Source of the DNA: a virus
DNA: 64,000 nt
IMG/VR virus record: IMGVR_UViG_3300028837_000933
Span: 32,001-96,000 of that record
Direction: 5' to 3' (one strand)
A model generated the notes under the pieces. That model was not told where the DNA came from, did not search any database, and worked only from the letters and a program-made list of their open reading frames with translations. Both the position numbers and the translations under genes were made by a program. Positions 8,629 to 52,106 of this stretch are shown one piece after another (the first letter of the stretch is position 1; each line of letters begins with the position of its first letter).

Positions 8629-8629
8629 C

Positions 8630-8803
8630 TCATTTCTCCCAGGAGAACGTGTACCTCGGCTCCACGTTGGCCTCGCGGCCCACCAGCTGCACGGCGCCGC
8701 AGCACACCTCTAAAGGACCATCGCTCGTTTGTAGCATTACAACCTTGGGAATCGTCTCCACTTCATCATCCACTTTCCTGCTTTCATCCAAGTTTGGCGT
8801 CAT
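8630..8803 (-). CDS. Small hypothetical protein (57 aa)
   Basis: ATG overlaps the upstream stop (ATGA) and the ORF fills the gap exactly; translated by hand (MTPNLDESRKV...FSWEK). Confidence 0.45.
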   Translation of the reverse strand: MTPNLDESRKVDDEVETIPKVVMLQTSDGPLEVCCGAVQLVGREANVEPRYTFSWEK

Positions 8804-9896: not shown

Positions 9897-9928
9897 GGCT
9901 CCCTCTCTTTAGTTGTAGGACTTCATCA

Positions 9929-11692
9929 CTAGGCCACGTATTCGTAAGCCTTGAAGTCCATGTTGTTGACCAGACCGATCATCCAGCCCGTGCTGTCCCG
10001 CTCCAACTCACAGGTGAGATCGCCGTGGACGAGGTCCCCAGCGGCCTGCGGCGTGGTGCGGTTCATCAGGTTGGCCTCATCGGCTTCGAGCCGGAACGCA
10101 AACCTCTCCGTGCTACCGGTTTGGCCGGGCACGACCGTACCGCTGGCATAGAAGAGGTCCAACGTCTTTTCAACGGGCGTGGTCGATGGCGAGTTGCCAT
10201 CAATCGCGCCGAAGAAAATCTCCCTGTAAATCTCACCCTCGCGGGCTCCGAGATACACATCGATGGTGACGTTGCACGAGCGCTCGTTCGGCTCGATGTT
10301 GTACGGCTCGCCCTCGCACTGCTGCGGCTCGACCTGCACGTCCCAGGTCATTTCGATGCTCGAAGCCGCGATGCGGAAGGCGGTGCCGTCCAGTTCGGTG
10401 TGGCCGTAGGCATCCAGGGTGTTGGGTGCTACCACACCTGTCTGCTCTGCCGTGACGTTCAGCGTCTCGGCCTCGACCTGTTTCCAGGTCACGGCCTGGC
10501 CGCTGAAGTTGATGGTGAGTTCGGCCTTGTCGGCACCCTCGATGGTTAGGCTGGACAGGCGGCTCGCCTTGTAGATCAAGTCCAGCCAGGCGGCAGGATC
10601 GACCTGGTTGCGGAAGGTGTAGTGCGGGAAGTCGGCGCCCACATCGATCGGCACGAACAGATGCTTGTTCGCCTTGACTTTCGCGTCATCGGCGGTGTAA
10701 GTGGTGGCGCCCGTGTCATCCGCGGTGAAGCCAAGGTCATCGGAGATCGTGCAGGCCGCATCCGTCCAGTCGATGTCAAGACTGACGGAATCGGTCTCGA
10801 TGGTGTACAGGTTGGTGCTGGTGTCGTAGGTGACGGTATACACCCCATCCAGCGTACCTTGGTTATCGAGCACCGCCTTGAGTGCCGCCCCGACAGAGAA
10901 CGGCGACAGCGGGTAGCGGGCTGTGCAGATGGAGCCCGTACCTCCGATGACGCTCACGGTGAACGGCCCGCCACCATTATCGGTGATGACGATGCCATCG
11001 TTGATGCCAGTGCGGAACCAGTGCTTCGCGGTGACATCCCCATCAGAGCGCTCGTCATCGGCCTCGTAGGTGACGCCGCCCGTGTCATCGGCCGAGTGAT
11101 CGTACCCCAGCAGATTGGCCATCATGGGCGTGGTTGTCCAGTGCAGCGACAACGTGGTCCCGGCGTGCGCGATGGTGATCTTGTCATCGGTCACGCTGAC
11201 GGTGTAGGTCTGAGTGAGGGTCGTATCGGCATCGAGCATGAGCTGCAACGCCGCTGCCACCTCAGTCAGAGTGTAGGGGGTGCCTGCCACCAGTGGTGTC
11301 AAGTACCCCGGATCGATGACATCAAGCAAAGAGATCGTGACCGGCCCGCCGCCGTCATCCGTCACGGAAATCTCGTCATTGACGCCAGCCCAGAACTGGA
11401 TGCCACCGCTCCACGGTTGCATCCCGAAAGCTGCCAGCAAGTGCCCTTGATTGCCGGCGCGGAGGCGTCCGTTACCGGTCAGGTCTACCGCGTCAAAGCC
11501 CAGAATCGGCGGTACGGTCCTGTCCAGCTTTTGCTCGCCCATCTCGGCGGCATCATCGCCACGCACGGGATTGGGCGTGTGGTCAAAGTCGTACAACCGG
11601 AACTTGTACAGCGTCTCCGCATAGGTATCCTCATCGAGTTGAGGCCCCATGGAGACTACTGTGGTTTTGCCCGAAGGCGTCTTGTCAGCCAT
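9929..11692 (-). CDS. Major tail (tube) protein with two inserted repeat domains
   Basis: 587 aa, upstream of the chaperone; internal duplication (G.ND.I..TD.GGGP.T.S ... ADDTG..TY.ADD). Confidence 0.7.
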   Translation of the reverse strand: MADKTPSGKTTVVSMGPQLDEDTYAETLYKFRLYDFDHTPNPVRGDDAAEMGEQKLDRTVPPILGFDAVDLTGNGRLRAGNQGHLLAAFGMQPWSGGIQFWAGVNDEISVTDDGGGPVTISLLDVIDPGYLTPLVAGTPYTLTEVAAALQLMLDADTTLTQTYTVSVTDDKITIAHAGTTLSLHWTTTPMMANLLGYDHSADDTGGVTYEADDERSDGDVTAKHWFRTGINDGIVITDNGGGPFTVSVIGGTGSICTARYPLSPFSVGAALKAVLDNQGTLDGVYTVTYDTSTNLYTIETDSVSLDIDWTDAACTISDDLGFTADDTGATTYTADDAKVKANKHLFVPIDVGADFPHYTFRNQVDPAAWLDLIYKASRLSSLTIEGADKAELTINFSGQAVTWKQVEAETLNVTAEQTGVVAPNTLDAYGHTELDGTAFRIAASSIEMTWDVQVEPQQCEGEPYNIEPNERSCNVTIDVYLGAREGEIYREIFFGAIDGNSPSTTPVEKTLDLFYASGTVVPGQTGSTERFAFRLEADEANLMNRTTPQAAGDLVHGDLTCELERDSTGWMIGLVNNMDFKAYEYVA

Positions 11693-36096: not shown

Positions 36097-37932
36097 CTAT
36101 CGCATCATGGCTTCCATTTGCCAACGGGGTACAGCCTGGCTGCTGATCCGAGCCACTCGCGGGGCCTCTTCGGCGGCTCTCTGATAGCCTTCGGCATGGG
36201 CGTAGTGGTCGGCGGCGGTGCCCACGTAGACGGCCAGTTGGGTGTGTTGGCGCTCCTCAACGACCCGCACCATGTGGCAAATCTGGTCATAGTAGCCCGG
36301 CACATCGCGCATGTGGGCCGGCAGCGTGTGGCTCTTGGTATAGAAGCCCTCATACATGCGGTCAAGCCCGCGGGTGCGATCTATGTTGATCTCGCCCTGC
36401 TCGGGCCGCCACAGGTACATATCCGGGCGCCGACTGGACGCCGGGCTGCTGCTGTAGTAGGCCAGCCACACAAGCCCCGGTTCAAACTTGGCTTGAAGCT
36501 CTCTGGCCTTCTTGGTCTCGGGCATGGCGTCCACGACCACGCGCTTACAGTTCCAGCGTATGATCTCCGCTGCTATGGCCTCGAAGCTGTCCACAACGCC
36601 GGCCATCCGGAGCGGTTTTTCTCCGGTGAGGTAGTCCTTGGGGCCGCGCACCACGAAATGGAGCACGTTCCCCACGTCAACGCCCATGGTGGTCTCTTCG
36701 GTCGGCATCACACCAAAGGCGTAATCGCGGCGCAATAGATCCAGGAGTTGATTCGTCATCCTACCGCCTCTCGGCTGGTAGGGAAGGCCCAAGTCCTGAT
36801 TGACACACTCTTTGCGTTGGGTCTCGTTGATGACCCGCAAGCGCTCGATGATCTCGAGAGGGTCCTGGCGGGCACTGTACAGTTTGGTGAGGTGGTAGCC
36901 GTGGCGCTTGATGTGGGGAAACTCAGCTATCCACTCGCCCGGCCCCAGCCTGTCCATCACACCATCACACTTCTGACAATGGGCAACGGCCTTGTCCTCG
37001 TCCATCCCATTCCAGATAATCGGGCGCTCGAGCGCATCGTACTCGACAACGAAGTGGTCCAGTGTGAGGTACTGGCGTTTGCCACAGTGGTCACAGCGGA
37101 TAAACCAGTACATCTGATTGGTGAGCACCCATAGTTGCTCGATCCCCATGCCGGGGTACGTGGGCGTGCTCACGGCTCGCATCTCGCCCAGCGAGTCGGC
37201 CCCCAGCCGTTTCTCGGCAATGGGGATGGCCCGCTGGTCCATCTCATCAACCTCGTCCAAGAGCACGACGTCGGCGTCCACCGACTTCAATTGCGGAGCC
37301 CCGCCATCCTTTTTCACGCGGGCACCGCGCAAGTACCAGAAACGGTCTCCCACCCTTTTCAGGGTAACGCGGTCTGCTGCTTTTCGACGCGCGGCCTCGG
37401 AAGATGTCTGATCTCCTCCGGAGACGATCAGCCGCTGAAGGTAGGGTGAAGCCTCGATAGCCGGACCGATGCGGGCAACGCTGAAATCCGAAACGTGGGT
37501 GTCGGTGGGGAACACGTACAGGACGGTCGCTTTCCGGACATCGCACGCGTGCATGGCATAGCTGATGAGAAGCTCGCTGGCTCCCATCTGGGCGGCTTTG
37601 CGCACAGTCATGTGTTCGGACGTGTCGCCGTACAGGGCCACCAGATAGGGGTGTTTCACAAAGTCCAGCGGGCGGTCCGGGATGAGGAACTGGCGATGGC
37701 GCATGGTCCAGGCAAGCAGCCCCAGCGGCGCCTCGTCTATCGCCTCTCCCGCCCTGGTGCTGATCTGCCCTTGCCGTCTCTGCAATTGCTGGGCCAGCGC
37801 GGCAGCCAGCCGAATCTTATCGAGTCGGTTTGCAGCGCCCTCGCCTGGCGTTGGATGCCCCGTGCCGAGCAGTTCTTCGAGCCCTGACCCGGCCGCAGGC
37901 GCGGCTCCCAGTAGTTCGCGAATCTCGCTCAT
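36097..37932 (-). CDS. Terminase large subunit (lambda gpA-like)
   Basis: Walker A KAAQMGASE, Walker B LLDEVD, STPT, CxxC...CxxC zinc motif, nuclease motifs MGVDVG and DHYAHA. Confidence 0.9.
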   Translation of the reverse strand: MSEIRELLGAAPAAGSGLEELLGTGHPTPGEGAANRLDKIRLAAALAQQLQRRQGQISTRAGEAIDEAPLGLLAWTMRHRQFLIPDRPLDFVKHPYLVALYGDTSEHMTVRKAAQMGASELLISYAMHACDVRKATVLYVFPTDTHVSDFSVARIGPAIEASPYLQRLIVSGGDQTSSEAARRKAADRVTLKRVGDRFWYLRGARVKKDGGAPQLKSVDADVVLLDEVDEMDQRAIPIAEKRLGADSLGEMRAVSTPTYPGMGIEQLWVLTNQMYWFIRCDHCGKRQYLTLDHFVVEYDALERPIIWNGMDEDKAVAHCQKCDGVMDRLGPGEWIAEFPHIKRHGYHLTKLYSARQDPLEIIERLRVINETQRKECVNQDLGLPYQPRGGRMTNQLLDLLRRDYAFGVMPTEETTMGVDVGNVLHFVVRGPKDYLTGEKPLRMAGVVDSFEAIAAEIIRWNCKRVVVDAMPETKKARELQAKFEPGLVWLAYYSSSPASSRRPDMYLWRPEQGEINIDRTRGLDRMYEGFYTKSHTLPAHMRDVPGYYDQICHMVRVVEERQHTQLAVYVGTAADHYAHAEGYQRAAEEAPRVARISSQAVPRWQMEAMMR

Positions 37933-38948: not shown

Positions 38949-39932
38949 CTAGGTGGGTAGCGCAAGCGGCTCCCTCATCGGCTCATCCACGTCATGTTCT
39001 TCAAGCTCGCCCTTCTCCAGCCGGATCTGGGCTAGGCGCTCCATGGCCAGTCTGGCCATCTCAACCACGGCGGTCGGGATCGAAAAAATCTCACACTCAT
39101 CCCGGACGGTTTGCAGGGCCTTCCGCCAGGAATCGTAAAAGTCACGGTTCGCCATGTACATGCGATCCACATCGACACTCGGTACAATGGCCTCGGCGGC
39201 GGCCACGAAATCATCGTGCTGGGATGAAAGGAACATCAGCAGCACAACGCGGGAATTGCCAAGAAGGTTCACGTCTGGCGGATTGAACTTGACCGGGTCC
39301 GGTATCAGATCGATGATGCGCGGGTCAACGTAGGCCGCAAACTGCTCGGCCACATCGGTGATCGCCCCGAACACCCTGGCCACCAGTTCGGGATCATCCG
39401 AGCCGGCGATAGTGTTGTGGCTCAGCTGCTTGGAGTACATGGCGCTCTTGCTCAAGTCCTCGTAGAGCAGCACAAGCACCACCTTCACGCCAGCCGCCCG
39501 GCCTGCGCGGACGCGGTGGTTCCCGCTGACTATCTCGATCCCCTTATCCGTCCGTACGCACAACGGCACCGACTCCAGACCACCCACGGTGGAGATATTG
39601 TCGACCAGCTGGTCGAACGTTTTCTTGGTCATGGAGCGCGGGTTCACATCCTGTTCGATCAACTCGCTGATGTTCGCCACGAACAGACTCAAATGCTCAG
39701 GGAGCACCATCTTGCTCAATTCCTTGAGCATGGAGTTGATCTGTTCGCGGTCGCCGTGAAGCATCTCGGGGTTGATCACCCCCCGCATGATCGACTCGAA
39801 GCCGTCTACATCCTCGGGGCTTACGCCGGCTGCGTCTGTGGCTTGCGCTTCTTGCGGCCCCTGCGCTTCCTCCCGCGCCTCGACTTCTTCGGTGTCTCCT
39901 GCTTCGGCCTCTGCTTGAACTTCTGATACCAT
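38949..39932 (-). CDS. ParB/Srx-like N-terminal domain protein (start may be 39788)
   Basis: NPRSM, IVSGNHRVRA and HNTIAG motifs. Confidence 0.8.
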   Translation of the reverse strand: MVSEVQAEAEAGDTEEVEAREEAQGPQEAQATDAAGVSPEDVDGFESIMRGVINPEMLHGDREQINSMLKELSKMVLPEHLSLFVANISELIEQDVNPRSMTKKTFDQLVDNISTVGGLESVPLCVRTDKGIEIVSGNHRVRAGRAAGVKVVLVLLYEDLSKSAMYSKQLSHNTIAGSDDPELVARVFGAITDVAEQFAAYVDPRIIDLIPDPVKFNPPDVNLLGNSRVVLLMFLSSQHDDFVAAAEAIVPSVDVDRMYMANRDFYDSWRKALQTVRDECEIFSIPTAVVEMARLAMERLAQIRLEKGELEEHDVDEPMREPLALPT

Positions 39933-40684
39933 AGGGCTAGGGTCTCCTCCCTCGTACGGTCTGCAACGTGCGCCTCGTAGACCAGCTTGTACTCCCCATC
40001 TGATTGTCGCTCGCGGCTCCGCATTGTCATGCCTGTCCCTCGAGCGGTCTTATTCTCTGGGTGTGGGGTGAGCATGGTACTCTGGATCATCTCCGGCACA
40101 CCCCGGATCTGGAACCAACCCAACGCGCCGAACACGTCCTCCCAGAACCAGGCGCTACACATGCTCATCAGGGTCAGTTTGTGCAGGCGCGGCTCCAACT
40201 CCTGCGGCGCCGTGAACGCAAACACAATCTTGGCCGGCAGTTCGCTCGTGGGCGTGCCGGCGAGAACACCACTCCCGGTGCGGTAACTCTGCATGTGCGC
40301 TCCCACGATACCCAGCAAATGCCCATCCAGGAGCACCGCGCAGTAGTTTTCCGCCCCACCTCCAGGCAACCGATGAACGAACAGATCCCGGTAGTAGTCA
40401 CCCTCCTGTTGGGAGATCATCTTCGCCCGGAGTTCCATCCCCTCCTTCACAGGAGCGTGAAAGAGGGGAAAGCTCGATCTCCCTTCATGCAGCTTGGTGC
40501 GCACCATGACGTGCGGGAGTAGTGTCTTGTTGGACACGATCCAGTTGAGCGATGTCAGCCGCGTGTTTCCGGGCCTGTCAGCGAACACCGACCGCCAGGG
40601 CGGCCCCCACGTGGGGGAAGGGTCTTCTCCCTTGGAAGCGTAGTACATGAGCACAAGCGCCTCGGATGCGGCGAGATAGTCCAT
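39821..40684 (-). CDS. DNA-modification-associated protein, probably the C-terminal part of 40694..41332
   Basis: In frame with the upstream ORF and separated by one TAG; YYRDLFVHRL segment is possibly a GNAT-like fold (inference). Confidence 0.55.
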   Translation of the reverse strand: MDYLAASEALVLMYYASKGEDPSPTWGPPWRSVFADRPGNTRLTSLNWIVSNKTLLPHVMVRTKLHEGRSSFPLFHAPVKEGMELRAKMISQQEGDYYRDLFVHRLPGGGAENYCAVLLDGHLLGIVGAHMQSYRTGSGVLAGTPTSELPAKIVFAFTAPQELEPRLHKLTLMSMCSAWFWEDVFGALGWFQIRGVPEMIQSTMLTPHPENKTARGTGMTMRSRERQSDGEYKLVYEAHVADRTREETLALWYQKFKQRPKQETPKKSRRGRKRRGRKKRKPQTQPA

Positions 40685-40693
40685 CAGCCCCTT

Positions 40694-41332
40694 CTAGTCA
40701 CGCTCGACAAACTGGGCCACCTCTGGTTCGTCCCAGTCAAAGATCGCCTCGATGCCCTCGAACATCTTGTCATAGCCGCCCGTGTACCTAGGCGGGTTGA
40801 GCAGGATAGCAGTGGAAGCGTCACTCCGCGGCTCGTCAATCACTTCCCACATATCCTGTGTCTCGTAGTTGATGCCGTCCAGCTGCGCCGCCATGGTCTT
40901 CAACTGCTCAATCAGTTGAGGGACGTAGCTTCCCACGTTTCTCAGCAATTCCTGCTGGTTCTGGATGTGCCACGCCTTCTTGGTCTTGCGCTCGTACTGG
41001 AGCACCCTCAATAGGAACATGATCGCCGCCGTCTTACCCAACGGCCCCTCGTCCAGCCACGGTAGAACCACATCGGCGGCCTCGTGCTTCGGCTCTAATC
41101 GGTAATCTCTGCCCACTAACGCATGACCCAAGGCGTGAGAGTAGACAGATATGTCCGATGCGTAGATGCTCTCCGGCGTAGCTCCGCCGGCGACCGCGCT
41201 CACCGCCAGGCTGAACGTGCCACAGCAAGGCAGAATCACCCGGTTGGGGCGATAGGCTTTGACCATCTGGCTGGTGTAGCCTCGCGTGCGCCCTCGCGGG
41301 ATGCCTTTGAACAGTATGTCAGGATTGGACAT
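40694..41332 (-). CDS. Adenine-methyltransferase-like DNA modification protein
   Basis: Motif-I-like ILPCCGTFS, ASDIS and catalytic-like LLNPPRY. Confidence 0.6.
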   Translation of the reverse strand: MSNPDILFKGIPRGRTRGYTSQMVKAYRPNRVILPCCGTFSLAVSAVAGGATPESIYASDISVYSHALGHALVGRDYRLEPKHEAADVVLPWLDEGPLGKTAAIMFLLRVLQYERKTKKAWHIQNQQELLRNVGSYVPQLIEQLKTMAAQLDGINYETQDMWEVIDEPRSDASTAILLNPPRYTGGYDKMFEGIEAIFDWDEPEVAQFVERD

Positions 41333-41529
41333 AGATGCTACCCATTATGCCAGGACTCCACCCACACACCTACCCAGAGCAGCACGGACAGCACGGCCCA
41401 GGCAAGGAAGCCACGCATCAAGAGCGCAACCGCGAGTTCTAATGTCATTCGGCCTCCTCACGAAAGAAAGCCCCACAGCGGGGCCTCTGCTTGCCACCGT
41501 GCCCAGCCGCTACCCGGCGAACACTCAGG

Positions 41530-41671
41530 ACCAGGGAGTAGGAGTCGAACCTACATCTTCCCCTTGAGAGGGGGCTGTCCTCGGCCTAGGGCCTTGCCAT
41601 CGCTTAGTCGCCTCTTACGGCGAAACCTACAGCCACAGTCAAAGACTGGCGGGGCGTTAGACGATCCCTGG
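41530..41671 (-). tRNA. tRNA-Glu(CUC)-like gene with a 69-nt D-loop insertion
   Basis: Acceptor CCAGGGA/TCCCTGG, D-stem GTCT/GGAC, anticodon arm CCCC-CT CTC AA-GGGG, T-arm GTAGG-TTCGACT-CCTAC; no encoded CCA. Confidence 0.75.
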
Positions 41672-41677
41672 ACCACC

Positions 41678-41706
41678 AGTATACCGCATCCTTCCCGATT
41701 TGTCAA
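41678..41706 (-). promoter_or_regulatory. Sigma70 promoter driving the tRNA and modification/terminase genes
   Basis: TTGACA-17-TATACT ending 6 nt before the tRNA 5' end. Confidence 0.85.
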
Positions 41707-41751
41707 CTTCTACACGGTTCCCTTGGCAATCGCAAAGGTATACACAGATGG

Positions 41752-41780
41752 TTGACGGATGGCACGATTTGTGATAAGAT
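41752..41780 (+). promoter_or_regulatory. Divergent sigma70 promoter
   Basis: TTGACG-17-TAAGAT with extended -10 TG. Confidence 0.65.
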
Positions 41781-41797
41781 GGCACAAAGGAGGCACG

Positions 41798-42256
41798 ATG
41801 TCACCAAGGGATAAGGTGTACGGCGACCCCATCACGTACAATGGCAAGACGCATACGCTAGAAGAATGGGCCAAGCGGTTGAACACCACCTATTCCGTGC
41901 TCGCTCACCGCCTGCGTAGGGGCTGGTCTGTCAATCGCACGCTCTCCACCCCACCTGAAAAAGTCGTGAAGCGTATGCGATTCGATGGACGCAACATGAC
42001 GTACCAGGAATGGGAGTACGAGACAGGCATCAAGCAACGTAGGCTCCGACGTCGACGGGCGGCAGGATGGACAGAGGAACAGACCGTCACAACCCGCGTC
42101 CGCAAATACGGCCGACAAATCAACTACGCGGGCCAGAATAAGACACTCCGCGAGTGGGCAGAAACGCTCGGCATCAACTACAACACGCTCTACTACCGCC
42201 TGTACAGGCTCGGACTCCCGATAGAAGAAGCGTTCACAGCACCCCTCAGACGCTAA
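41798..42256 (+). CDS. Triple-repeat HTH-like DNA-binding protein
   Basis: AAAGGAGG SD; three copies of (I/M).(Y/F).G...T..EW.......L..R...G. Confidence 0.7.
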   Translation: MSPRDKVYGDPITYNGKTHTLEEWAKRLNTTYSVLAHRLRRGWSVNRTLSTPPEKVVKRMRFDGRNMTYQEWEYETGIKQRRLRRRRAAGWTEEQTVTTRVRKYGRQINYAGQNKTLREWAETLGINYNTLYYRLYRLGLPIEEAFTAPLRR

Positions 42257-42559
42257 CACACACACACCCACGGTTCCCATAGGAAGGGCAAAGGGCCAAG
42301 CACCCAACGCGCACAACGGGTTTTCGGGTCAACCGAAATCCGGGTCAAGCCGATTCTGGGTAGGGCCTCACCCCCAGGCACGCCCGCTGTGTCACCCACA
42401 GGGCGAAAACCCAAAAAATCGCTGCGCGGTCGGAGACGCAAAAAAGGCCGACGCCCCCTCTGAGTACGGCGGGCTTATGTAAAGAGGCAAACTCAAAAAT
42501 CCAGTGCGTGGTCGAAATGACCCAAATGGCGAGAAACGCACAGAATCCACCAAAAAATG

Positions 42560-44790
42560 CGCGAAACCGAGTGAACTCGCTTGAACTCCACAGAAGCCGG
42601 ATGAACTCGACAGAACCCGAGGGGAACCCGGTGAACCGTGAGCAAACCGAGTGAACTGTGAGCAAATCGAGTGAAAGTGTAGGAAACCGTAGCAAACGTG
42701 ATGAAACCCATAGAAGCGCGATCAAACCGCGTGATCAGCTCTGAAACCATCGCAAACCGTATAGAACCAGGGGCAACCGTAGCAAAGCCGGAGAAACGTG
42801 TTGAAACCGTAGAAACCCGAGTGGAATCGTGTAGCCGGCTATAGATAGGGTAGAGACCGACAGAAACCGCATGAACCCCGTTGAAAGCCTCTCTTCCTCA
42901 TCGAACCCGTGAGAAATCGTAGGAAACCGCATAGAAGCCCAGCAAACCGAGAGACCAGGCCGGCAACCGTGAGGAACCGTGAGAACTGGTAGCATAGTGA
43001 CAGGAACCGTAGGAAAACGGGAGAGAATAGAGCAACCCGTGAGTAACTCACCGAACCCGTGAGAAACCACATAGAAGCACAGTGAACCGGGAGAAACCGA
43101 GTGGCCGGCGACAGTATGCCCGGAAACCGTGAGAGAATGGCAAGAATGGCAGCAAACCGGGAGAAAGCGACAGAAAGCACAGCAGACGGCCGGATCTCCC
43201 TGGAAACCGTGCGGAATCGATAGGCCGGCACAGCTATCGTGTGAACCCGGTTGGAATCGATAGCAATCGTGTAGTATACGTGCATATCGACAGGAAGCAG
43301 GAGCAACCAGTAGCCGGCGACAGTAACCCAGTGACCGCGTGCGCAATCGGCAGGACTCATAGCAAACCAACAGTAACCCAGTGCAATCACTAGGCCGGCG
43401 CAGCTATCGAGTGACCACGGTTGAACCTCTGCAATTCCGATAGCAACCGCAAAGAAACCAGAGACCCCAAGAGCAACCAGCAGCAAGCGACAGGCGGCCG
43501 GAGAAACCCGCAAACCACGCGAGAAACCGAGAGACCACGCCCCAAACCCACAGGAACCGCGAGCAATCGAGTGGCCGGCAACGATACGCGTGTATATCGT
43601 CAACTATAGTGTGATGGTGAGTGAGAGTGAGTGAGGGTGAGTGAGACCAGCAACAAGCGACAGGTCTCCAGTGACCAGGTAGCAAACCGTGAGCAATCGT
43701 GTGAACTGGTAGCAAACCGAGCGGGACGGTGAGAAAGCGACAGGCCCCGCGAGCAATCGAGTGGCCGGCCGCGAAACCGTGAGACCAGCTCAGGAACAGT
43801 GGGATAACGACAGGTCAAGCCAGCAACGCAACAAAAGAGGCAGGAACCGAGAGAACCCGGCAACCCGAGCACCAACTCGCCCAAACCCGTCACCAACCGT
43901 CAATCCACGTGTGACCGCGTGAGAGTAGCCTTGCCAACCGTCACGAACCGTCAACCTAATAGGGTCAATCGGCCTAATTTGAGTGAAACCGTATAGAACC
44001 GAGAGAACCGTCGACAGTGAAACCGTGTGAAAGCAAACCGTGAGAAACCGTGTGAAACGTGAGAGAGAGAAACCGTGTGAAACGTGAGCGCCAAAACCCG
44101 CGAAAACAAACCGTGTGAAACCGTGTGAAACGTGAGAGAGTGAAACCGTGTGAAACGTGAGAACCAAAACACTCCAAAACCGAACCGCGAGAAACCGTGA
44201 GAAACCGTGTGAACCTAGACCCCTAGAAACCGTGTGAAACCCATAGCAAACCATAGTAGAATCGTGAGAAACCGTGTGAGAACCAAACCCGGTCAAACCG
44301 AACCACCAAAACCCGCGAAAACAAACCGTGTGAAACCGTGTGAAACGTTAGTAGTAGAAACCGTGTGAAACGTGAGAACCAAAACACCCCGGTCCAAACC
44401 GTGAGAAACCGTGTGAAACGTGAGAGAGAGAAACCGTGTGAAACGTAACCACCAAAACACCCAAAAAGCAAACCGTGTGAAACCGTGTGAAACCCAGTGA
44501 ACCGTTTTTCATCTTCTGCCGTCGCCTGAAACCGTGAGAAACCGTGTGAAACCGTCAACCAGGTTGAAACCGTGAGAAACCGTGAGAAACGCAACCCGCG
44601 GACCTCTCACCCAGAAACCGCGAGAAACCGTGAGAAACCGATCACGGTCCCTGGTTGGCATTGAAACCGTGTGAAACGATAGCAACCCAGCTCAAACCGT
44701 ATAGATCCATACAGTCAGACCAGTTTTTTTCCCGCTAGTTATGGGTCAAGTTATTGAAACCGTGTGAAACCCATAGCAAACCCTAGGCAA
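42560..44790 (+). repeat. Strand-biased low-complexity array of AAACCGTG(T/A)G-type units
   Basis: Dozens of AACCG(T)/GAAACCGTG units, most regular at 43980-44770; the ORFs here are repeat artefacts. Confidence 0.85.
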
Positions 44791-44830
44791 ACCATATCAA
44801 AACCGATTGAAAAACGGTCCCAACGCGTTT

Positions 44831-44860
44831 TTGGAGTATCAGCCGGGTTGGTGGTATAAT
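44831..44860 (+). promoter_or_regulatory. Candidate early promoter
   Basis: TTGGAG-18-TATAAT with extended -10 TG; followed by TCTC. Confidence 0.55.
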
Positions 44861-45341
44861 TCTCGCGTAACCTATAGGCCAACGGGACGCACCAACCGAA
44901 CCCTTGACCCTCTCCCTACTCCATCCCAACCCGAACCACTATCACCCAACCCGAACCACTATCACGCGGGACCGTTGACCGAACCGGAACCGGAAAAGAC
45001 CACCAACCGCAACCACCGCAACCACCAACCCAACCCGCACCACGTCAACCGTACATTTCCAACGGTCCAGAAACCGAGAATATAACCTAATCCCTACCAA
45101 CCCGAACCCGAACCGGAACCCTAAACGGTTGGATTATACCTCTCCCTCTCCCTAGTCAGTTTCTATAGCTAGAATACCCGCACCTCTCCAACGTCAGTGG
45201 AACCCAAAACGCGGAAACGCGTTCCCAGTCGCGGAAAACAAACCAACAAACCCGCACCCACAAAAACGGTGGTGATAGGCAAAAATCACAAAAAAATCGG
45301 GACAATCAGCCGGAACACTCGTCAACTCACGTGCGGCATTT

Positions 45342-45371
45342 TTCCCGAACCGGGACCTTGACGGGTATAAT
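45342..45371 (+). promoter_or_regulatory. Candidate early promoter upstream of the first cassette
   Basis: Perfect TATAAT within GGTATAATTCTC, the same 12-mer as at 44853; weak -35 TTCCCG. Confidence 0.5.
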
Positions 45372-45540
45372 TCTCTCATAACTAGGGTCTCTCCCTTGAA
45401 TCACAATCGGGACGGTTGGCCTTTTCCGCGTTTCGCGGGAATTGCCAACGGTCCCTTTTGTGGTGAGAGACCCAACCGCGGAACCGTCCTATTGTGGGTC
45501 GGTTCGGTCGGGTTTCATCACAAAAAGGGAGAGTGATACA

Positions 45541-45654
45541 ATGGAGTTGGTGGAAATGTTGGTCAATATGCAACCCGCGTTTCAGATTCTTCTGGGTGCG
45601 TTCGTGTTGTTGGTGGTTGCGGTTTGTCTGGAGTTGGTTGGTATGATGCGATAG
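45541..45654 (+). CDS. Cassette ORF: 37-aa single-TM peptide
   Basis: ATG after the repeat SD; hydrophobic. Confidence 0.6.
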   Translation: MELVEMLVNMQPAFQILLGAFVLLVVAVCLELVGMMR

Positions 45655-45815
45655 ACCAACCACCAAGACCCACAATAGAATAGAACCGAGAGACCCACAA
45701 TCGGGACGGTTGGCAATTGCCAACGGTCCCTTTTGTGGTGAGAGACCCAACCGCGGAACCGTCCTATTGTGGGTCGGTTCGGTCGGGTTTCATCACAAAA
45801 AGGGAGAGTGATACA

Positions 45816-46199
45816 ATGTCAGATTATAGGTTGTATTGTGAGATTGACGAAACGGTTTTGAGGGAGTTGGTTGCCAGTATTGAAACCGTGTCAATCCGCG
45901 TGCGTGCGGAACCCAACCCTATTCTACAATCGTTGGTTCCACTGGAGATTGTGGAATTGTCGCGGGAACGTGCGTGGTTGACAATCCATCGGATACCCGC
46001 AACCGGAACCGTCAACCGGTATAGTCCAGCCGTCAACGTGGACGTTCCCGGTTGGGTTGACGTGGATCGGTTGGGTTTGTTGGATTGTCTGGACGGTTGG
46101 GTCGGTTGCGGGATTGTAACCCTTTTTTCCACTCACGATGGAATAGGGTATGCTTCTGACGGTTGTTTTGACGTGGACGTTTCCGCGGAAACGTATTGA
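45816..46199 (+). CDS. Cassette ORF: hypothetical protein
   Basis: ATG after the repeat SD; stop at the next repeat. Confidence 0.7.
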   Translation: MSDYRLYCEIDETVLRELVASIETVSIRVRAEPNPILQSLVPLEIVELSRERAWLTIHRIPATGTVNRYSPAVNVDVPGWVDVDRLGLLDCLDGWVGCGIVTLFSTHDGIGYASDGCFDVDVSAETY

Positions 46200-46351
46200 C
46201 CAACCACCAAGACCCACAATAGAATAGAACCGAGAGACCCACAATCGGGACGGTTGGCCTAGGCCAACGGTCCCTTTTGTGGTGAGAGACCCAACCGCGG
46301 AACCGTCCTATTGTGGGTCGGTTCGGTCGGGTTTCATCACAAAAAGGGAGA

Positions 46352-46648
46352 GTGAGGTTCGACTACAATCCCGATGCTATTGGGACGTGTCAACGGGTTG
46401 GTATCTTGGTTCGACTATACCACGATGGGAACCATTATCTTGTATATGACCGTTGGGACGTGATTGACGGTCAATCGCAACCCGTTTTTCTCGCGGGTTT
46501 TGGTGGTCCCGATTATACAAGAAACGGTCAATTGACCTATTCCAGTATTGACCGTGTGACGCGTTTTCTAATGCAAAACGCGGAAAAGGTTGAATTGTGG
46601 TTGACCCATCGGAACCATATTGACGTCAAAACGCACGATCCACAATAG
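46352..46648 (+). CDS. Cassette ORF: hypothetical protein
   Basis: GTG start very close to the SD; stop lies inside the next repeat. Confidence 0.55.
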   Translation: MRFDYNPDAIGTCQRVGILVRLYHDGNHYLVYDRWDVIDGQSQPVFLAGFGGPDYTRNGQLTYSSIDRVTRFLMQNAEKVELWLTHRNHIDVKTHDPQ

Positions 46649-46785
46649 AATAGAACCGAGAGACCCACAATCGGGACGGTTGGCCTAGGCCAACCGTCCC
46701 TTTTGTGGTGAGAGACCCAACCGCGGAACCGTCCTATTGTGGGTCGGTTCGGTCGGGTTTCATCACAAAAAGGGAGAGTGATACA

Positions 46786-47223
46786 ATGTTGTTGGTTGAC
46801 GTACAATTGACGGTTGTTTTCCGGAACCGTCCAGTGATGCGGGACGTGAACGGGAAACGTCAAAAAAACCGGGAACGGTCGACGGGTGATAGGCGTGGTA
46901 TGATGCGGGATGAAACGTGGTTATGTCTCACGTGGAACCATGAAACCGGATTCAAGGTTGCGGATTGGACGTGGTATAGTGGTGGAAACAAACCCTATTG
47001 GAATAGGGAATATGGTTCCGGTGGTCAACGTGCGGTATATTCCTATAGGGACAATCGGTTGACCGCAAACCTAGATGACACGTGGATCACTGACTACCAA
47101 CCACGAAAACCCATCACTGACGCGTCAGTGAAACGGTTGTTTCGGGTTTGTCGAAAATACGGGATGATTGTCGCCTATCTTGGCGACGGTTGGTATACTG
47201 ATTGTGGTGACGTTTCGATATAA
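46786..47223 (+). CDS. Cassette ORF: hypothetical protein
   Basis: ATG after the repeat SD. Confidence 0.7.
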   Translation: MLLVDVQLTVVFRNRPVMRDVNGKRQKNRERSTGDRRGMMRDETWLCLTWNHETGFKVADWTWYSGGNKPYWNREYGSGGQRAVYSYRDNRLTANLDDTWITDYQPRKPITDASVKRLFRVCRKYGMIVAYLGDGWYTDCGDVSI

Positions 47224-47379
47224 CCCGCATCACTGACAATAGAATAGAACCGAGAGACCCACAATCGGGACGGTTGGCCTAGGCCAACGGTCCCTTTTGT
47301 GGTGAGAGACCCAACCGCGGAGCCGTCCTATTGTGGGTCGGTTCGGTCGGGTTTCATCACAAAAAGGGAGAGTGATACA

Positions 47380-47754
47380 ATGTTGTTTTTCGTGGATCGT
47401 GATATACTCGCGGAAACGTTCTATGGTGACGAGTTGGACGATTGGGACCACGTACAGTGGAACGTCAAGTATTGGGGAGAGTTGGTTATAATTCCCTACG
47501 CAAGAATAGGTCAAAAACGTCCCGCGTTCGGTGCGTGGACTATCCCGGTTTCCGTTTTGGAGAGTGCGGAAAACGTCACAATCGATTGTATGGAGTTGGA
47601 TACATTTTTGACCTATTCAAACGTGGAAAAACCCGGTTCGGGTTGTATTGTCGCGTTCCGTTCCGATGGAGAGGGAACCGTTTCCGCGGGTATTGTACGT
47701 CAATCCCGATGGAAACCTATACAAGACCCGTTTTGGTTCGACATTTCACCATAG
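47380..47754 (+). CDS. Cassette ORF: hypothetical protein
   Basis: ATG after the repeat SD. Confidence 0.7.
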   Translation: MLFFVDRDILAETFYGDELDDWDHVQWNVKYWGELVIIPYARIGQKRPAFGAWTIPVSVLESAENVTIDCMELDTFLTYSNVEKPGSGCIVAFRSDGEGTVSAGIVRQSRWKPIQDPFWFDISP

Positions 47755-47916
47755 CACGCACCCACAATAGAATAGAACCGAGAGACCCACAATCGGGACG
47801 GTTGGCCTAGGCCAACGGTCCCTTTTGTGGTGAGAGACCCAACCGCGGAACCGTCCTATTGTGGGTCGGTTCGGTCGGGTTTCATCACAAAAAGGGAGAG
47901 TGAGACGGTCCAAAAA

Positions 47917-48062
47917 TGAAACCGGTGCCGGATACGCTATTTTTCCATCGTTCCGCGATTGACGGTCCCAAAAGGAACGGGACCGAACCCGCAACCGTTG
48001 ACGCGGAAAACCCGCATCGGTTGAAACCCGTGCCGGATACGCTATTTTTCCATCGTTCCGCG
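47917..48062 (+). repeat. 41-nt direct repeat pair flanking a 64-nt hairpin-rich spacer
   Basis: 47917-47957 and 48022-48062 differ at one position. Confidence 0.85.
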
Positions 48063-48220
48063 GGTTGACCAACCACCAAGACCCACAATAGAATAGAACC
48101 GAGAGACCCACAATCGGGACGGTTGGCCTAGGCCAACGGTCCCTTTTGTGGTGAGAGACCCAACCCAACCAACCACGATCCACCAACCCAACCGCGGGAA
48201 CCGTTGACGGGTTGACCAAC

Positions 48221-48369
48221 GGGACCCAACCGCACGCGGGACCCTTGACCCTTTTTCCGGTCGGGACCCAACCGCACGCGGGACCCTTGACCCTTTTTCC
48301 GGTCGGGAACCCAACCGCACGCGGGAACCCTTGACCCTTTTTCCGGTCGGGACCCAACCGCACGCGGGG
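48221..48369 (+). repeat. ~42-bp tandem repeat, 3.5 copies
   Basis: Unit GGGACCCAACCGCACGCGGGACCCTTGACCCTTTTTCCGGTC. Confidence 0.9.
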
Positions 48370-48876
48370 AATCCGCGTCAATTCGGTTGAACGCACCCAC
48401 AACACAAAAACGGGTTACACCGTGCAAAAAATCCCGCACATTTCCGGTCAATTGACCCTTTTTTGGTGAGACCAACCAACCAAAAACAACCGGGTTGACC
48501 GATTTTTGGGTCAATCGTTCCGGTTCCTAGGTCAACGGTCCCTTTTTTGGCCAACCTGGTCGGTTTCCAACCACAACCCTTGGAGCTGGTTCCAACCCAT
48601 AGCGCGAGCGTGAGGGACTTACACCTGGTGGAATCGGGCTGGCGTTTGGAGCCGCCAGCCAAAACGGCGCTAGATTCTACACCAACCGCGGAGCGCGTGA
48701 GCGCACATCTGGCGCATCTTTTCCCACGTTTGGAGTCGATAGCACGGGGCGGTCAGCTGGCCACAGCTGGCGGTCCCTTTTCGGGTGAGAGAGTCGGTAG
48801 TCGGCTCAGGCCGCGCTAGGCTGGAATCGGTCCAGCTTTTCTACGCCGACTCACAACCACAGAGAGGGAGAGTGTC

Positions 48877-49086
48877 ATGGCATGCGGAATCCCGCTATAC
48901 GCGAGCGTGGCGCTGGAATATCCCACGTGCCCGCCAACCACAGCCGGGGACGATGGCCGCGGTTTTCCAGCGGCCGGCGAACCTGGTGACTGGCGAATTG
49001 GCGACCCGCTGGACGATGACGAGATCGGTATCCAGATGGGTGAGCCAATCGGGGTCGAGCACCTGGCTGGTATCGTGCTGGCGTAA
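48877..49086 (+). CDS. Cassette ORF: small acidic protein
   Basis: ATG after the repeat SD. Confidence 0.55.
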   Translation: MACGIPLYASVALEYPTCPPTTAGDDGRGFPAAGEPGDWRIGDPLDDDEIGIQMGEPIGVEHLAGIVLA

Positions 49087-49235
49087 CGCAAGCTGAGCAT
49101 CACAACAGAAAACGAGAGACCCGAATTGGGGCGAACCGGGACGGTCCGGTTGGTCCCTTTTCGGGTGAGAGAGCCAACCACCAACCGGGGTCGTCCCGGC
49201 TGGCCTGGTTCTCATCACCACAGAGGGAGGGAACG

Positions 49236-49583
49236 ATGTACAGCTATTGCGATGTGGAAACCTATTGGGTGCCAGTCGAACATGGTCCAACTCTCCAGCC
49301 AATGGCCGGGATGTTCTTGGCGCCGGACGGCTGGAATGCCCGAACGGTCAAAACGCCGCGACCCCATTGGGGCGGTGAGACGCTGCTGGAATGCACCGAT
49401 TGGGACAAGGCAGCCTTCCGCTTGCCAACGCGGCACATCGGCATCGAAGTCGCGATCAACGTGCGCATCACGGGCCACCGCGTCCACGTGTGGGACGGTC
49501 GCCATTGGGTGAGGACACGGATCACGTGGGTCGGGGACTGCGAGCCGGACAGCTATAGCGGCGGCTGGCTTTGCATCCGCTAG
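49236..49583 (+). CDS. Cassette ORF: hypothetical protein
   Basis: ATG after the repeat SD. Confidence 0.7.
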   Translation: MYSYCDVETYWVPVEHGPTLQPMAGMFLAPDGWNARTVKTPRPHWGGETLLECTDWDKAAFRLPTRHIGIEVAINVRITGHRVHVWDGRHWVRTRITWVGDCEPDSYSGGWLCIR

Positions 49584-49707
49584 AACACAACAACCGAATA
49601 CTCGCGAGAGACCCGAATTGGGACGGCGTGGCCTTATTCCACGTGGTCCCTTTTCGGGTGCCGGCGCCCCTGGTTCGGGCGTCGAGTACAGAGAGGGAGG
49701 GCATATC

Positions 49708-49938
49708 ATGGCAGCAGTATCGTACATGGCGCGTTTTCACTCGGGGCGTTTGCTCCGGCTGGTCGGCAAGCTGGTCATGGTCCAGCTGGCATACGGTGTG
49801 GCCGAGGGCACGCTGTCGGTTGACGGCGAGCTGGCCAATTGCGTTTACACCGTGACCGGATCTGGCACGCATCTGGAGTTCCGCGTGGAGAAGGTGCGGG
49901 ACGTGGAGTACAGCGAGCGCCTGGTGGTGCTCGTCTAG
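49708..49938 (+). CDS. Cassette ORF: hypothetical protein
   Basis: ATG after the repeat SD. Confidence 0.7.
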   Translation: MAAVSYMARFHSGRLLRLVGKLVMVQLAYGVAEGTLSVDGELANCVYTVTGSGTHLEFRVEKVRDVEYSERLVVLV

Positions 49939-50060
49939 CACAACAACCGAATACTCGCGAGAGACCCGAATTGGGACGGCGTGGCCTTATTCCACGTGGT
50001 CCCTTTTCGGGTGCCGGCGTCCGATCTGCTGACGCCGAGTACAGAGAGGGAGGGCATATC

Positions 50061-50444
50061 ATGGATAGCTTGGAATTGGGTGCCACGGCGGAGTTGCGCG
50101 TGCTGGTCAGGGGTTACAAGGGCCAGGACGGGCTCGATGTCCGGAAGTTCTACAATGGCAAGCCAACCAAAAAGGGTGCTTTTCTCTGCATCCCTGGACA
50201 GGCGGAGTTCGCCGTCAAGGCGCTTGGCCTGGTCCTGGCTGGCGAGAGCGCGGAAGAGGCGCTTCCCATCGATCGCGCCGCCAAGGGCACAACCAACCTG
50301 GTCGTGCGGCGCTTCGAGTTCAAGGGGATGGATGGTATCAGCATCCGGAAAGAGGGCGAGCGCTGGGGCAAGGGGATCTGGCTCAAGCTGGCTCAGGCCG
50401 AGTGGGCGTTCGGCGCGATGAAAGCCGCTCTGGCTGGCAAGTAG
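50061..50444 (+). CDS. Cassette ORF: tandem PC4/YdbC-like ssDNA-binding protein
   Basis: Two related halves, YKGQDGLDVRKFY..KPTKKG and FKGMDGISIRK..GKGIWL. Confidence 0.65.
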   Translation: MDSLELGATAELRVLVRGYKGQDGLDVRKFYNGKPTKKGAFLCIPGQAEFAVKALGLVLAGESAEEALPIDRAAKGTTNLVVRRFEFKGMDGISIRKEGERWGKGIWLKLAQAEWAFGAMKAALAGK

Positions 50445-50594
50445 CACGCATCACCACAACCGAATAGCGAGAGACCCGAATTGGGGCGAACCGGGATGTT
50501 CCGGTTGGTCCCTTTTCGGGTGAGAGAGCCAGTCACCCAACCGGGGTTGTCCCGGCTGGCCGCTGGGTCTCATCACAGAGAGGGAGGGATTGCA

Positions 50595-51266
50595 ATGGCG
50601 ATGCACAAGACGGACGAGCTGTATCTGGACGCGCTGCCGCCGTTTCCACACAGCGACGAGGAGTTCTACAAGATGGAGACCACGCGGGACGTTCCGACAT
50701 CGGCGCTGTGGTTCGAGCGCTGTGGTGACCATCTGGACGGTCGCAAGCTGGCAATCTGGCCACGCGAGCGGAGCGCGTGGAACGTGGTCCACAACGTCTT
50801 CTGGATGACGTTCTATCCGGACGGCGCTGTGGTCGGCGGCTATGGCACGCGGATCGAGGGCGTGGATACGCCGTACAACTGGCGCAGTCACATCGAGCAC
50901 CTGGCTCGCCGGAACGGCTACAAGGTGACGGAGCCGGGACGGAACCGGACAATCCGGGTGGACTGGCATCCTGGTGACGTGGTGGCCGTGGTGTTCAAGT
51001 ACATCGAGCGCCGCGAGACGCTGGACCAGTCGGAGTTGAACCGGCTGTACGACTACCGCCAGTTCTGGAACCCGCGGAAGGTGCGCAAGCTGTCGCTGTG
51101 GGTGGGCAGCGCGTGCCCTGGACAGCGCCAAGCTGGGCGCATAGCAACACAACAACCGAATACTCACGAGAGACCCGAATCGGGGCGGCTGGGCTTCATT
51201 CCCAGTGGCCCCTTTTCGGGTGCCGGCGCCCCTGGTTCGGGCGCCGAGTACAGAGAGGGAGAGTGA
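50595..51266 (+). CDS. Cassette ORF: hypothetical protein (apparent C-terminal frameshift; native stop probably 51144)
   Basis: ATG after the repeat SD; reads through the next repeat because of a TGGG duplication at 51099-51106. Confidence 0.6.
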   Translation: MAMHKTDELYLDALPPFPHSDEEFYKMETTRDVPTSALWFERCGDHLDGRKLAIWPRERSAWNVVHNVFWMTFYPDGAVVGGYGTRIEGVDTPYNWRSHIEHLARRNGYKVTEPGRNRTIRVDWHPGDVVAVVFKYIERRETLDQSELNRLYDYRQFWNPRKVRKLSLWVGSACPGQRQAGRIATQQPNTHERPESGRLGFIPSGPFSGAGAPGSGAEYREGE

Positions 51267-51623
51267 ATGATGGACGTCGAGACTACGGTTTGTCGGCTCA
51301 AAGCAACGCTGGTATCCAGCGAGGGTGAGAATCTCAGCGTCAAGGCTCGCGGTGACGGAACGCTGTCGGTGACAGAGCTTGACACCAACAACGCGTTCAC
51401 CACAACGCGGACGCTGGTCGGCGTGATCGTCTACGCGGCGGGCCGGAGCGTGATACACCGGGCTTCCGCGCTGGACACGCTCCGCGGACTGCGTGGCGAC
51501 AAGGCGGTCAAGCTGGTGGACGATGGCGAGGGCGCGTTGATTGGCTGGGAGTGCTCCGGCTGTCCCCATGGTGAGCACTGGCACGATGTGAGCGTGGTGC
51601 CAGCCGACATCACAACCGAATAG
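51267..51623 (+). CDS. Cassette ORF: hypothetical protein
   Basis: ATG after the repeat SD; CxxC near the C-terminus. Confidence 0.65.
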   Translation: MMDVETTVCRLKATLVSSEGENLSVKARGDGTLSVTELDTNNAFTTTRTLVGVIVYAAGRSVIHRASALDTLRGLRGDKAVKLVDDGEGALIGWECSGCPHGEHWHDVSVVPADITTE

Positions 51624-51725
51624 CGAGAGACCCGAAACGGGGCGGTTGGCCGATGGTGGCCGCGGTCCCTTTTCGGGTGCCGGCGCCTGGGGCTTAGGCG
51701 CTGGACAACAGAGAGGGAGGGTATC

Positions 51726-52106
51726 ATGCCGCACGGAATCAGTGGACTGTGTTTCGAGTTGGAAGTTGGCATATTCCGGCGAGCGTTGCTGGCCAACGTG
51801 TCGCGGAGCGTGTCGATCCTGGCTACGCACATCGGCAAGGCGCCAGTGATAATCCGGGACCTGGACTACAATCCGGGGATCGTGACGGAGCGCCGGATCG
51901 AGCGCAGCCAGATCGTGCTGTCGGTTGGTCGCATGGCTCTGGACAGCAGCAAGCTGCTGGGGTTCCTGGCCGGGATGGCCAACAGCGCACGCGTCCAGGT
52001 GGCCTACAACGCGGACAGCGAGCCGTGCATCACCGGGCTGTGCTGGGGCCAAAAGCGATGGCACACAATAGCCGACCTGGAGCCGTTCCAGTCGCCCGCC
52101 AGCTAG
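51726..52106 (+). CDS. Cassette ORF: single sliding-clamp-like domain
   Basis: FELEVGIFRRAL...GRMALDSSKLLGFL...VQVAYNADSEP resembles a DnaN domain pattern. Confidence 0.4.
   Translation: MPHGISGLCFELEVGIFRRALLANVSRSVSILATHIGKAPVIIRDLDYNPGIVTERRIERSQIVLSVGRMALDSSKLLGFLAGMANSARVQVAYNADSEPCITGLCWGQKRWHTIADLEPFQSPAS

Follow-up and report, generated by a model that had tools for sequence, protein, structure and literature searches.

A 4.6-kb zone of phage DNA nearly devoid of AG/CT and GC steps as a candidate leading segment purged of defence target words

Background

Why would 4.6 kb of a phage genome do almost without two of the ten dinucleotide steps? The question is raised by a 64,000-nucleotide window of viral DNA, bases 32001-96000 of the 121,820-bp IMG/VR record IMGVR_UViG_3300028837_000933, which is classed as linear with a completeness estimated at about 87 %. 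All positions given here are positions in this window unless stated otherwise. Between 43950 and 48560, the AG/CT and GC steps are nearly banned, together with several four-letter palindromes. An original prediction had proposed that this zone is the first-injected DNA of the phage, purged of restriction or other sensor motifs and carrying candidate anti-defence genes. Having followed up this proposal, we consider the chances evenly balanced that the zone leads the genome as pre-early DNA from which the target words of defence systems have been purged.

A zone of AG, CT and GC avoidance

Within 43950-48560, the strand-specific odds ratios are 0.55 for AG, 0.44 for CT and 0.42 for GC, compared to 0.92-1.05 elsewhere. 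The three steps together make up 9.0 % of the dinucleotides in 43950-48585 compared to 21.0 % (standard deviation 1.0, minimum 17.9) in 94 windows of the same size taken outside, and their lowest fraction in any other 1-kb window of the 121.8-kb genome is 0.159. The avoidance announced by the original prediction is therefore real, and the counts it had made by hand for 46786-47223 are exact (GC 9, AG 8). The same stretch has 10 CT and, as had been said, CG is common there (37).

One explanation for the depletion is base composition, as the GC content is 51 % in the zone and 59-62 % around it. With odds ratios of 0.42-0.55, the drop in GC content from about 0.60 to 0.51 is not the cause, and GC content alone fails as an explanation. 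CpG is enriched in the zone (1.22-1.3). When duplicate repeat copies are removed, the remaining 2,718 nt still show a depletion of -1.64 log2 for GC and -1.25 log2 for AG/CT, and the open reading frames (ORFs) taken alone are likewise depleted. The dinucleotide difference delta* is 0.27-0.35 for the zone compared to 0.074±0.026 in the rest of the phage.

The zone had been described as sharply bounded. This holds for the right edge, where we count 4-12 AG/CT/GC steps per 100 nt through 48599 and then 25, 24 and 25, in agreement with the predicted return to normal composition near 48590. The left edge is graded over about 200 nt at roughly 43900-44100.

The depletion acts on double-stranded DNA

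The depletion is seen in ORFs, in repeats and in non-coding DNA (array, leader and border), and within the ORFs it is found at codon positions 1-2, 2-3 and 3-1. At the junctions between codons, AG/CT/GC steps number 36 compared to 76.4±6.3 in permutations that shuffle synonymous codons while preserving the proteins and the codon usage; a number as low as the one observed does not arise in any of the 2000 permutations. If written with the codon usage found downstream, the zone proteins would carry 329±11 of these steps; the observed number is 127. The depletion is also strand symmetric, with ratios of 0.03 for AGC and 0.09 for GCT, 0.03 for GGC and 0.12 for GCC, and 0.26 for CAG and 0.17 for CTG.

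Codon choice follows the same trend and bears out the preferences noted earlier for the cassette ORFs. From the rest of the genome to the zone, the share of GGC goes from 46 % to 2 %, CGC from 33 to 2, AGC from 30 to 0, TGC from 65 to 9, AAG from 71 to 19, CAG from 69 to 12, GAG from 63 to 36 and GCC from 41 to 10, with TTG rising from 14 to 62 and GCG from 27 to 69. Alanine, which is not writable without a GC step, accounts for 9.9 % of residues in the rest of the genome and for 5.0 % in the zone. Arrays, leader cassettes and ORF codon usage are each depleted within the zone and normal beyond it, the cassettes retaining their two-hairpin fold; the zone leaders differ from the outside copies in the way that had been described as a recoded repeat.

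Taken together, the strand symmetry, the presence of the depletion at all codon positions and its strength at codon junctions indicate a constraint on double-stranded DNA, which points to selection on the DNA and not on codons. Codon adaptation and causes at the RNA level are ruled out by the strand symmetry, the frame independence and the depletion in non-coding DNA. Curvature or wrapping was dropped as a cause for the ORFs since the ORF part of the zone has no 10-11-bp phasing.

It is conceivable that the missing steps are a by-product of something else acting on the DNA, either a local mutation bias such as context-specific C-to-T change or a dense packing of binding words of the AACCG, GGGAC or TTGAC type. 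The gains in the zone (GGT, TGT, CGT, TTG, AAA, CAA and GAA) are those to be expected if GC and CT steps had undergone C>T or G>A changes. Some words exceed the number predicted from dinucleotides, namely GGTTG/CAACC (z 12) and TTGAC/GTCAA (z 9.5), and a 12-bp palindrome, GGTCAATTGACC, occurs twice. CpG, however, is enriched and not lost, and ACC, CCC, TCC, AAC and GAC are kept; we know of no mutagen whose context is both 5'-G and 3'-T. The over-represented words cover a small part of the sequence, and the missing phasing of the ORF region speaks against dense binding as well. We regard a by-product of either kind as highly improbable.

Palindrome avoidance across the whole genome

The phage avoids palindromes far beyond the zone. 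TTAA is absent from all 121,820 bp, with about 206, 127 or 37 copies expected from mono-, di- or trinucleotide composition. Among the 64 palindromic hexamers, 23 are absent and seven more occur once, so that 30 occur at most once; AGATCT, AGGCCT, GCGCGC, GGGCCC, CTGCAG, TTCGAA and CCCGGG are examples. For words of comparable expectation, 23 of 56 palindromes are found at most once compared to 5 of 1796 non-palindromic pairs, and the ten most under-represented hexamers are palindromes without exception. The phage has thus demonstrably been shaped by restriction, and removal of recognition sites is a main strategy of its own. A non-palindromic word, CGACG/CGTCG, is also rare genome-wide, with 75 copies compared to 313 expected under a maximal-order Markov model (z -13).

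The zone keeps to this list as well. It has not one copy of 14 palindromes that are avoided by the genome and devoid of AG, CT, GC and TTAA, where its composition alone would predict 18.3-20.4 copies. For palindromes without any of the three steps that are abundant in the remaining genome, the shortfall is much milder, with 13 copies compared to about 21 predicted from the zone dinucleotides. The zone has evolved under pressures common to the rest of the genome, which speaks against its recent arrival from a phage with different hosts.

This result bears on the possibility that the zone is a foreign module from a related phage with another genome signature, its boundaries being recombination joints without present function. 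Such an origin would suit the GC content of 51 % against 59-62 %, the orphan ORFs and the sharp right edge. It would also suit the zone cassettes, most of which are 89-97 % alike (72 % for the first and 66 % for the truncated last one) and all unlike the 23 outside. Against it, the zone obeys the genome's avoidance list, with no copy where 18-20 are expected, and the cassette architecture runs seamlessly through the zone. No donor was found, the matches to the cassette motif in IMG/VR being single chance matches, and a donor would merely shift the question elsewhere. To our knowledge, odds ratios of 0.42-0.55 at two steps also lie beyond whole-genome signatures. We therefore consider a foreign module improbable.

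Words lost and words kept

The loss depends on context. The strongest reductions are about 9- to 14-fold (AGC/GCT and GGC/GCC), followed by some 4.5-fold for CAG/CTG and some 3-fold for AAG/CTT and GAG/CTC; the reduction of CGC/GCG is only mild, and TAG/CTA is spared. Among the tetramers, and measured against the rest-of-genome density, the zone has no GGGC/GCCC compared to 54 expected, 1 GCAG/CTGC compared to 42, 1 GCGC compared to 33, 3 GAGC/GCTC compared to 51, 4 CAGC/GCTG compared to 66, 1 CATG compared to 19 and 2 AGCT compared to 15. Degenerate words follow on the same scale, namely GCNGC (1 vs 39), CCWGG (3 vs 18), CTNAG (0 vs 9), GDGCHC (0 vs 9) and RGCGCY (1 vs 12).

Words that contain none of the three steps are affected too. 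Compared to the zone's own dinucleotide expectation, CATG is found once instead of 13.6 times, GTAC 4 times instead of 18, TCGA 8 times instead of 23 and GATC 7 times instead of 14.5. With action at the DNA level, palindrome avoidance across the genome, an avoidance list shared by zone and genome, and this additional loss of short words, a purge of restriction or sensor motifs, as originally predicted, is well supported.

The depleted words may instead be those read by the phage's own enzymes. In one such explanation, the zone avoids the contexts of an adenine hypermodifier and a C5-cytosine methylase so that the leading DNA stays unmodified, and either escapes modification-dependent nucleases or is freely transcribed by the host polymerase. 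The phage does encode a DAM-like and GNAT-like (Mom-like) pair and a C5 methylase, and one of the depleted steps contains A (AG/CT) and the other C (GC). Mom of phage Mu modifies A in SAS contexts (PMC13219725), and two of the four, CAG and GAG, are depleted in the zone. The other two, GAC and CAC, are not. The target of the C5 methylase is not inferable, as only its catalytic half aligns to M.HaeIII and M.HhaI, and the additional depletion of CATG, GTAC, TCGA and GATC requires at least one further cause. This explanation thus seems unlikely to us.

A second explanation of this kind is immunity to a pre-early nuclease of the phage itself, of very short specificity, which would destroy host DNA while only the zone is inside the cell. 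A purge that reaches down to di- and trinucleotides (AGC/GCT, GGC/GCC, CAG/CTG) fits a specificity of 2-3 nt better than it fits the 4-8-bp sites of restriction-modification (R-M) systems, and the boundary is sharp. Davison proposed the same for A1 of T5 (bioRxiv 10.1101/866236). On the other hand, no nuclease domain is found in the six ORFs of the zone, A to F, with Pfam or PHROGs; a private nuclease leaves unexplained why the zone obeys the genome-wide palindrome list; and a two-step entry is required just as it is for a leading segment purged of host targets. We doubt that a nuclease of the phage accounts for the zone.

The zone as a proposed leading segment

If the zone is a leading segment purged of defence targets, its double-stranded DNA would have been selected to lack the short words read by sequence-specific host nucleases and sensors. 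The avoidance would come in two tiers. Six-letter palindromes, of which about 20-80 are expected per genome, would be cheap to remove genome-wide. Four-letter, degenerate and asymmetric targets run to hundreds per genome and would be too costly to remove everywhere, so that they would be removed only in the zone; a near-ban on AG/CT and GC steps would be the low-resolution outcome of this local purge. The zone DNA would find itself naked in the cell at a time when no protective protein has yet been made. Such words could persist in the remainder of the genome, as it would arrive or be exposed later under the protection of zone products. The same scheme supposes that entry would pause at the right border and that ORFs A-F would act against defences.

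The genome organization offers a rationale for such an order of entry. A leftward arm from about 41.3 kb carries structural and packaging genes, including a 1,720-amino-acid tape measure protein and head proteins. It also carries a large terminase subunit (TerL) of the lambda GpA type at 36097-37932 on the minus strand (PF05876 as the precomputed family for the protein and its relatives; phrog_675, E 1.3e-85). A rightward arm from about 45.4 kb consists of some 29 small genes, each preceded by a conserved two-hairpin leader and a strong ribosome-binding site. A non-coding gap at 42.26-45.54 kb separates the terminase operon from the depleted zone, which forms the head of this rightward early array. 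In lambda, packaging starts at cos beside the terminase operon and runs through the operon. By analogy, the zone would be on the other side of cos and would be packaged last and ejected first. We infer first injection from the lambda-type terminase, the position at the gap, the place at the head of the early array and the parallel with an island in T5 described below. The build of the zone suits a leading segment as well, with its promoter-like boxes, its six small genes between leaders and its non-coding border that ends at the return to normal composition.

Several results weigh against this view. Undepleted DNA lies between the terminase side and the zone, namely array 1 (42450-43950, plus strand), about 1.5 kb of non-coding sequence with a strict 10.0-bp period whose AG and GC levels are normal and which is thus outside the zone. 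An end to the left of array 1 would let 1.5 kb of ordinary DNA enter first, so a leading zone needs a physical end at or near its left edge. One Logan contig is unbroken across 39500-44063 (such contigs carry no read starts). The fold of the border at 48430-48600 is not significant (z -1.5). Some possible targets are kept or even enriched in the zone, among them ACGT, CGCG, CCGG, GGWCC, CCGCGG (11 copies) and CCTAGG (7 copies), the copies of the last two being partly within repeated leaders. All 16 four-letter palindromes together have 134 copies in the zone after de-duplication, compared to about 154 expected from dinucleotides. ORFs A-F have no recognisable anti-defence domain and none like A1, A2 or dmp of T5 in Pfam or PHROGs, and their anti-defence role is a guess from position alone. 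Finally, no such zone is present in 62 loci of at least 6 kb, out of 80 IMG/VR loci with TerL relatives, or in 11 Chloroflexota loci. The lowest 1-kb ratios among those relatives are 0.73 and 0.79 compared to 0.39 here, the relatives being distant at about 50 % TerL identity.

A bolder version of the leading-segment view can be stated, which we put forward only tentatively as somewhat unlikely. The zone may be "stealth DNA", a first-step-transfer (FST) segment like that of T5, but carried by an unrelated siphovirus that has a terminase of the lambda type and probably infects Chloroflexota. Its vocabulary would have been cut wholesale so that no short-word nuclease or sensor finds a target before the six genes act. 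The left edge would then be the genome end and the right edge the injection stop.

Organization of the zone

All features of the zone given below are on the plus strand, except the 12-bp palindrome, which has no strand. The zone begins with array 2 (43950-44800), made of 10-nt repeat units, some of them arranged in a 73-nt higher-order repeat. Array 2 corresponds to array 1 in depleted form, with values of 0.42 for CT, 0.40 for GC and 0.76 for AG. An A/C-rich non-coding leader follows (44800-45400). It holds rightward TATAAT boxes at 44855-44860 and 45366-45371 in the common context GG-TATAAT-TCTC and a leftward box at 45138; these are putative promoters of the host type, which a separate consensus scan did not list.

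From there on, two-hairpin cassettes of the zone type alternate with the six ORFs, which exactly occupy the gaps between the leaders. Cassette 1 with its ribosome-binding site (45376-45536) is the first copy and 72 % identical to the reference copy, cassette 2 (45651-45811). Between them is ORF A (45541-45654), encoding 37 amino acids of hydrophobic character. ORF B (45816-46199) encodes an orphan of 127 amino acids with an isoelectric point (pI) of 4.3, and is followed by cassette 3 (46195-46355), which folds as two hairpins (z -4.66). ORF C (46352-46648) has 98 amino acids as assembled and lacks a canonical start. At its start (46352-46356), contigs of two sequencing runs (X1 and X2) carry a longer form that restores the leader-ATG start of the other cassette genes; the record as assembled may represent a deletion variant or contain an assembly slip there. 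Cassette 4 (46621-46781) leads to ORF D (46786-47223), an orphan of 145 amino acids and pI 9.5. Cassette 5 (47215-47375) precedes ORF E (47380-47754), an orphan of 124 amino acids and pI 4.4, and cassette 6 (47743-47903) precedes ORF F (47916-48068), with 50 amino acids and an internal 41-nt direct repeat. The two copies of this repeat, 47917-47957 and 48022-48062, are 98 % identical, and the first and last 14 residues of the product are nearly alike. Across the zone, most cassettes are 89-97 % alike, with 72 % for the first and 66 % for the truncated last one, and all of them differ from the 23 outside.

The distal border (48070-48585) is non-coding. Cassette 7 (48064-48224) keeps the first hairpin alone and has neither a ribosome-binding site nor an ORF after it. 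Four tandem 42-45-nt repeats at 48196-48368, each with a TTGACC word, are part of this border. A perfect copy of the 12-bp palindrome GGTCAATTGACC is located at 48446-48457, and the second perfect copy lies within ORF C at 46526-46537. With up to two mismatches allowed, the window has seven matches to it compared to a shuffle mean of 2.8 (largest 8; one of 100 shuffles reaches 7), and the copies look operator-like in sequence. The last GGTCCCTTTT motif and the right compositional boundary are found at 48537-48585.

Scans of IMG/VR for the repeated elements gave little. The cassette motif matched 25 loci with one match each, which we take as chance. The array unit matched three loci; these lie in unrelated contigs, show short triplets of iteron type and lack a depleted zone. 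In two unrelated low-GC viral contigs of IMG/VR (L118 and L119), a 10-nt unit resembling that of array 2 is present right behind a gene in three direct and two inverted copies, an iteron- or operator-like arrangement.

The six ORFs are orphans. Five of the six have no match in Pfam and three of the six none in PHROGs (E<=0.1), and the other matches are marginal (E 0.0016-0.049). No relative of ORF D was found among 1.84 billion representatives; its marginal match P0122 was rejected as the translation of a tandem repeat. Nothing above the bar was found for ORF E in the ESM Atlas, and the genome holds no paralogs of the six ORFs. For ORF B, an ESM Atlas model of low confidence (pLDDT, the predicted local distance difference test, 0.40) superposes on single sliding-clamp domains with template modelling (TM) scores of 0.57-0.65. 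The possible resemblance to a sliding-clamp domain is a lead only.

Neighbouring genes and the host

Between the two arms, a gene at 41759-42256 encodes a protein that has three helix-turn-helix repeats. This protein and the neighbouring array 1 could be a binding pair, and a packaging, partition or origin site is possible. Array 1 also has a strong A-over-T skew. Phage genes outside the window code for a C5-cytosine DNA methylase, two ParB-like proteins, a DUF5131 protein, a DnaB helicase and a sliding clamp; the group made up of the methylase, the ParB-like proteins and the DUF5131 protein is at L114:5513-6772 (genome 5513-6772), L114:2561-4561, L116:2007-3002 and L114:16499-17437. No tRNA was called in the window, and Rfam gave no match on 40000-52000 at E<=1. 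Neither the zone DNA (distant mode) nor a 994-amino-acid ORF (protein mode) matched anything in the phage set.

The closest terminase relatives are about 50 % identical, and no TerL above 54 % identity was found in a protein search that included Joint Genome Institute (JGI) data; TerL used as a single query in IMG/VR returned no locus. All 11 TerL relatives in prokaryote genomes are in metagenome-assembled genomes of Chloroflexota, and the host is probably a member of this phylum. Four DNA sequencing runs of a single marine-sediment study are listed for the phage, with no RNA run among them. The runs are available as contigs only and hence offer no molecule ends and no usable depth, and the parts uncovered in two of them (X3 and X4) are uninformative.

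Comparison with T5, T7 and Autographiviridae

That sites are avoided in a leading region is already known. T5-like phages are described as resisting Type I and Type II R-M, CRISPR and other defences unless the sites are in the FST region (PMC10644984; bioRxiv 10.1101/866236). In Autographiviridae, the leading region decides the sensitivity to Type I R-M and also holds variable early genes (PMC12455610). The likeness to our zone would be that the pressure to lose defence motifs falls mainly on the DNA that enters first; the difference is that this work concerns single bipartite motifs and escape mutants, whereas in the zone a whole vocabulary of short words is missing.

We looked at the composition of T5 and T7 in the same manner. 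In T5 (AY587007), delta* is 0.17-0.25 per kb over positions 1-10000, which is the left terminal repeat and FST region, and falls to 0.05-0.08 at 10 kb, the remainder being at 0.076±0.022. The first 10 kb of T5 are thus a sharply bounded dinucleotide island, with AG/CT at 0.79 compared to 1.12 in the rest, CG at 1.34 compared to 0.75 and GC at 1.53 compared to 1.12. T7 has no compositional island (maximum delta* 0.096). The early operon of T7 does have RNase III-type processing hairpins, which are likewise conserved hairpins between small early genes; this likeness concerns the leader elements and not the depletion, the zone copies keeping a predicted two-hairpin fold. No RNA polymerase such as a T7-type, transcription-driven entry would use was seen among the 20 larger ORFs scanned in the present phage, whose contig is about 87 % complete.

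The T5 FST region offers the closest parallel. Both are discrete blocks of small pre-early genes followed by a non-coding region of repeats and palindromes. The border of the zone at 48070-48585, with its four 42-45-nt repeats, 12-bp palindrome and truncated cassette, resembles the iss-type border of T5 in anatomy only. Both would be free of defence target words that the rest of the genome carries, and in both AG/CT is down and CG up. The GC step, however, is up in the T5 island and down in the zone, a difference that counts against the parallel. The purge of the zone is also deeper, at a delta* of 0.27-0.35 compared to 0.17-0.25, relatives of A1, A2 and dmp are not found in ORFs A-F with Pfam and PHROGs, and the terminase is of the lambda type. 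The FST region of T5 is part of a terminal repeat and the zone is single-copy in the contig, although assembly would collapse such a repeat.

Avoidance of palindromes as known in phages is found here in the absence of TTAA and in the 30 of 64 palindromic hexamers that occur at most once. What differs is a second, local tier over the global one, confined to 4.6 kb. In the literature consulted, where no search was aimed at dinucleotide islands of FST regions, we have seen no description of a sharply bounded block in which two of the ten steps are nearly banned, on top of a genome-wide loss of nearly half of the palindromic hexamers, in a phage unrelated to T5.

If the zone is indeed the leading segment, a sharp-edged compositional island would be a marker of first-entering DNA that can be recognized from sequence. 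In the stronger, "stealth DNA" form, both staged entry and the exact extent of the first-entering DNA would become readable in uncultured phages. On the leading-segment view, genome delivery in stages would extend beyond the T5 and T7 groups to a phage whose host phylum is poorly studied, and six orphan genes would be delimited as candidates for broad anti-defence functions. It would also reveal a two-tier economy of site avoidance, in which the whole genome is cleared of rare words and exposed DNA alone of frequent ones. The FST region of T5 carries a milder island of like kind, which makes the idea testable across phages with known termini.

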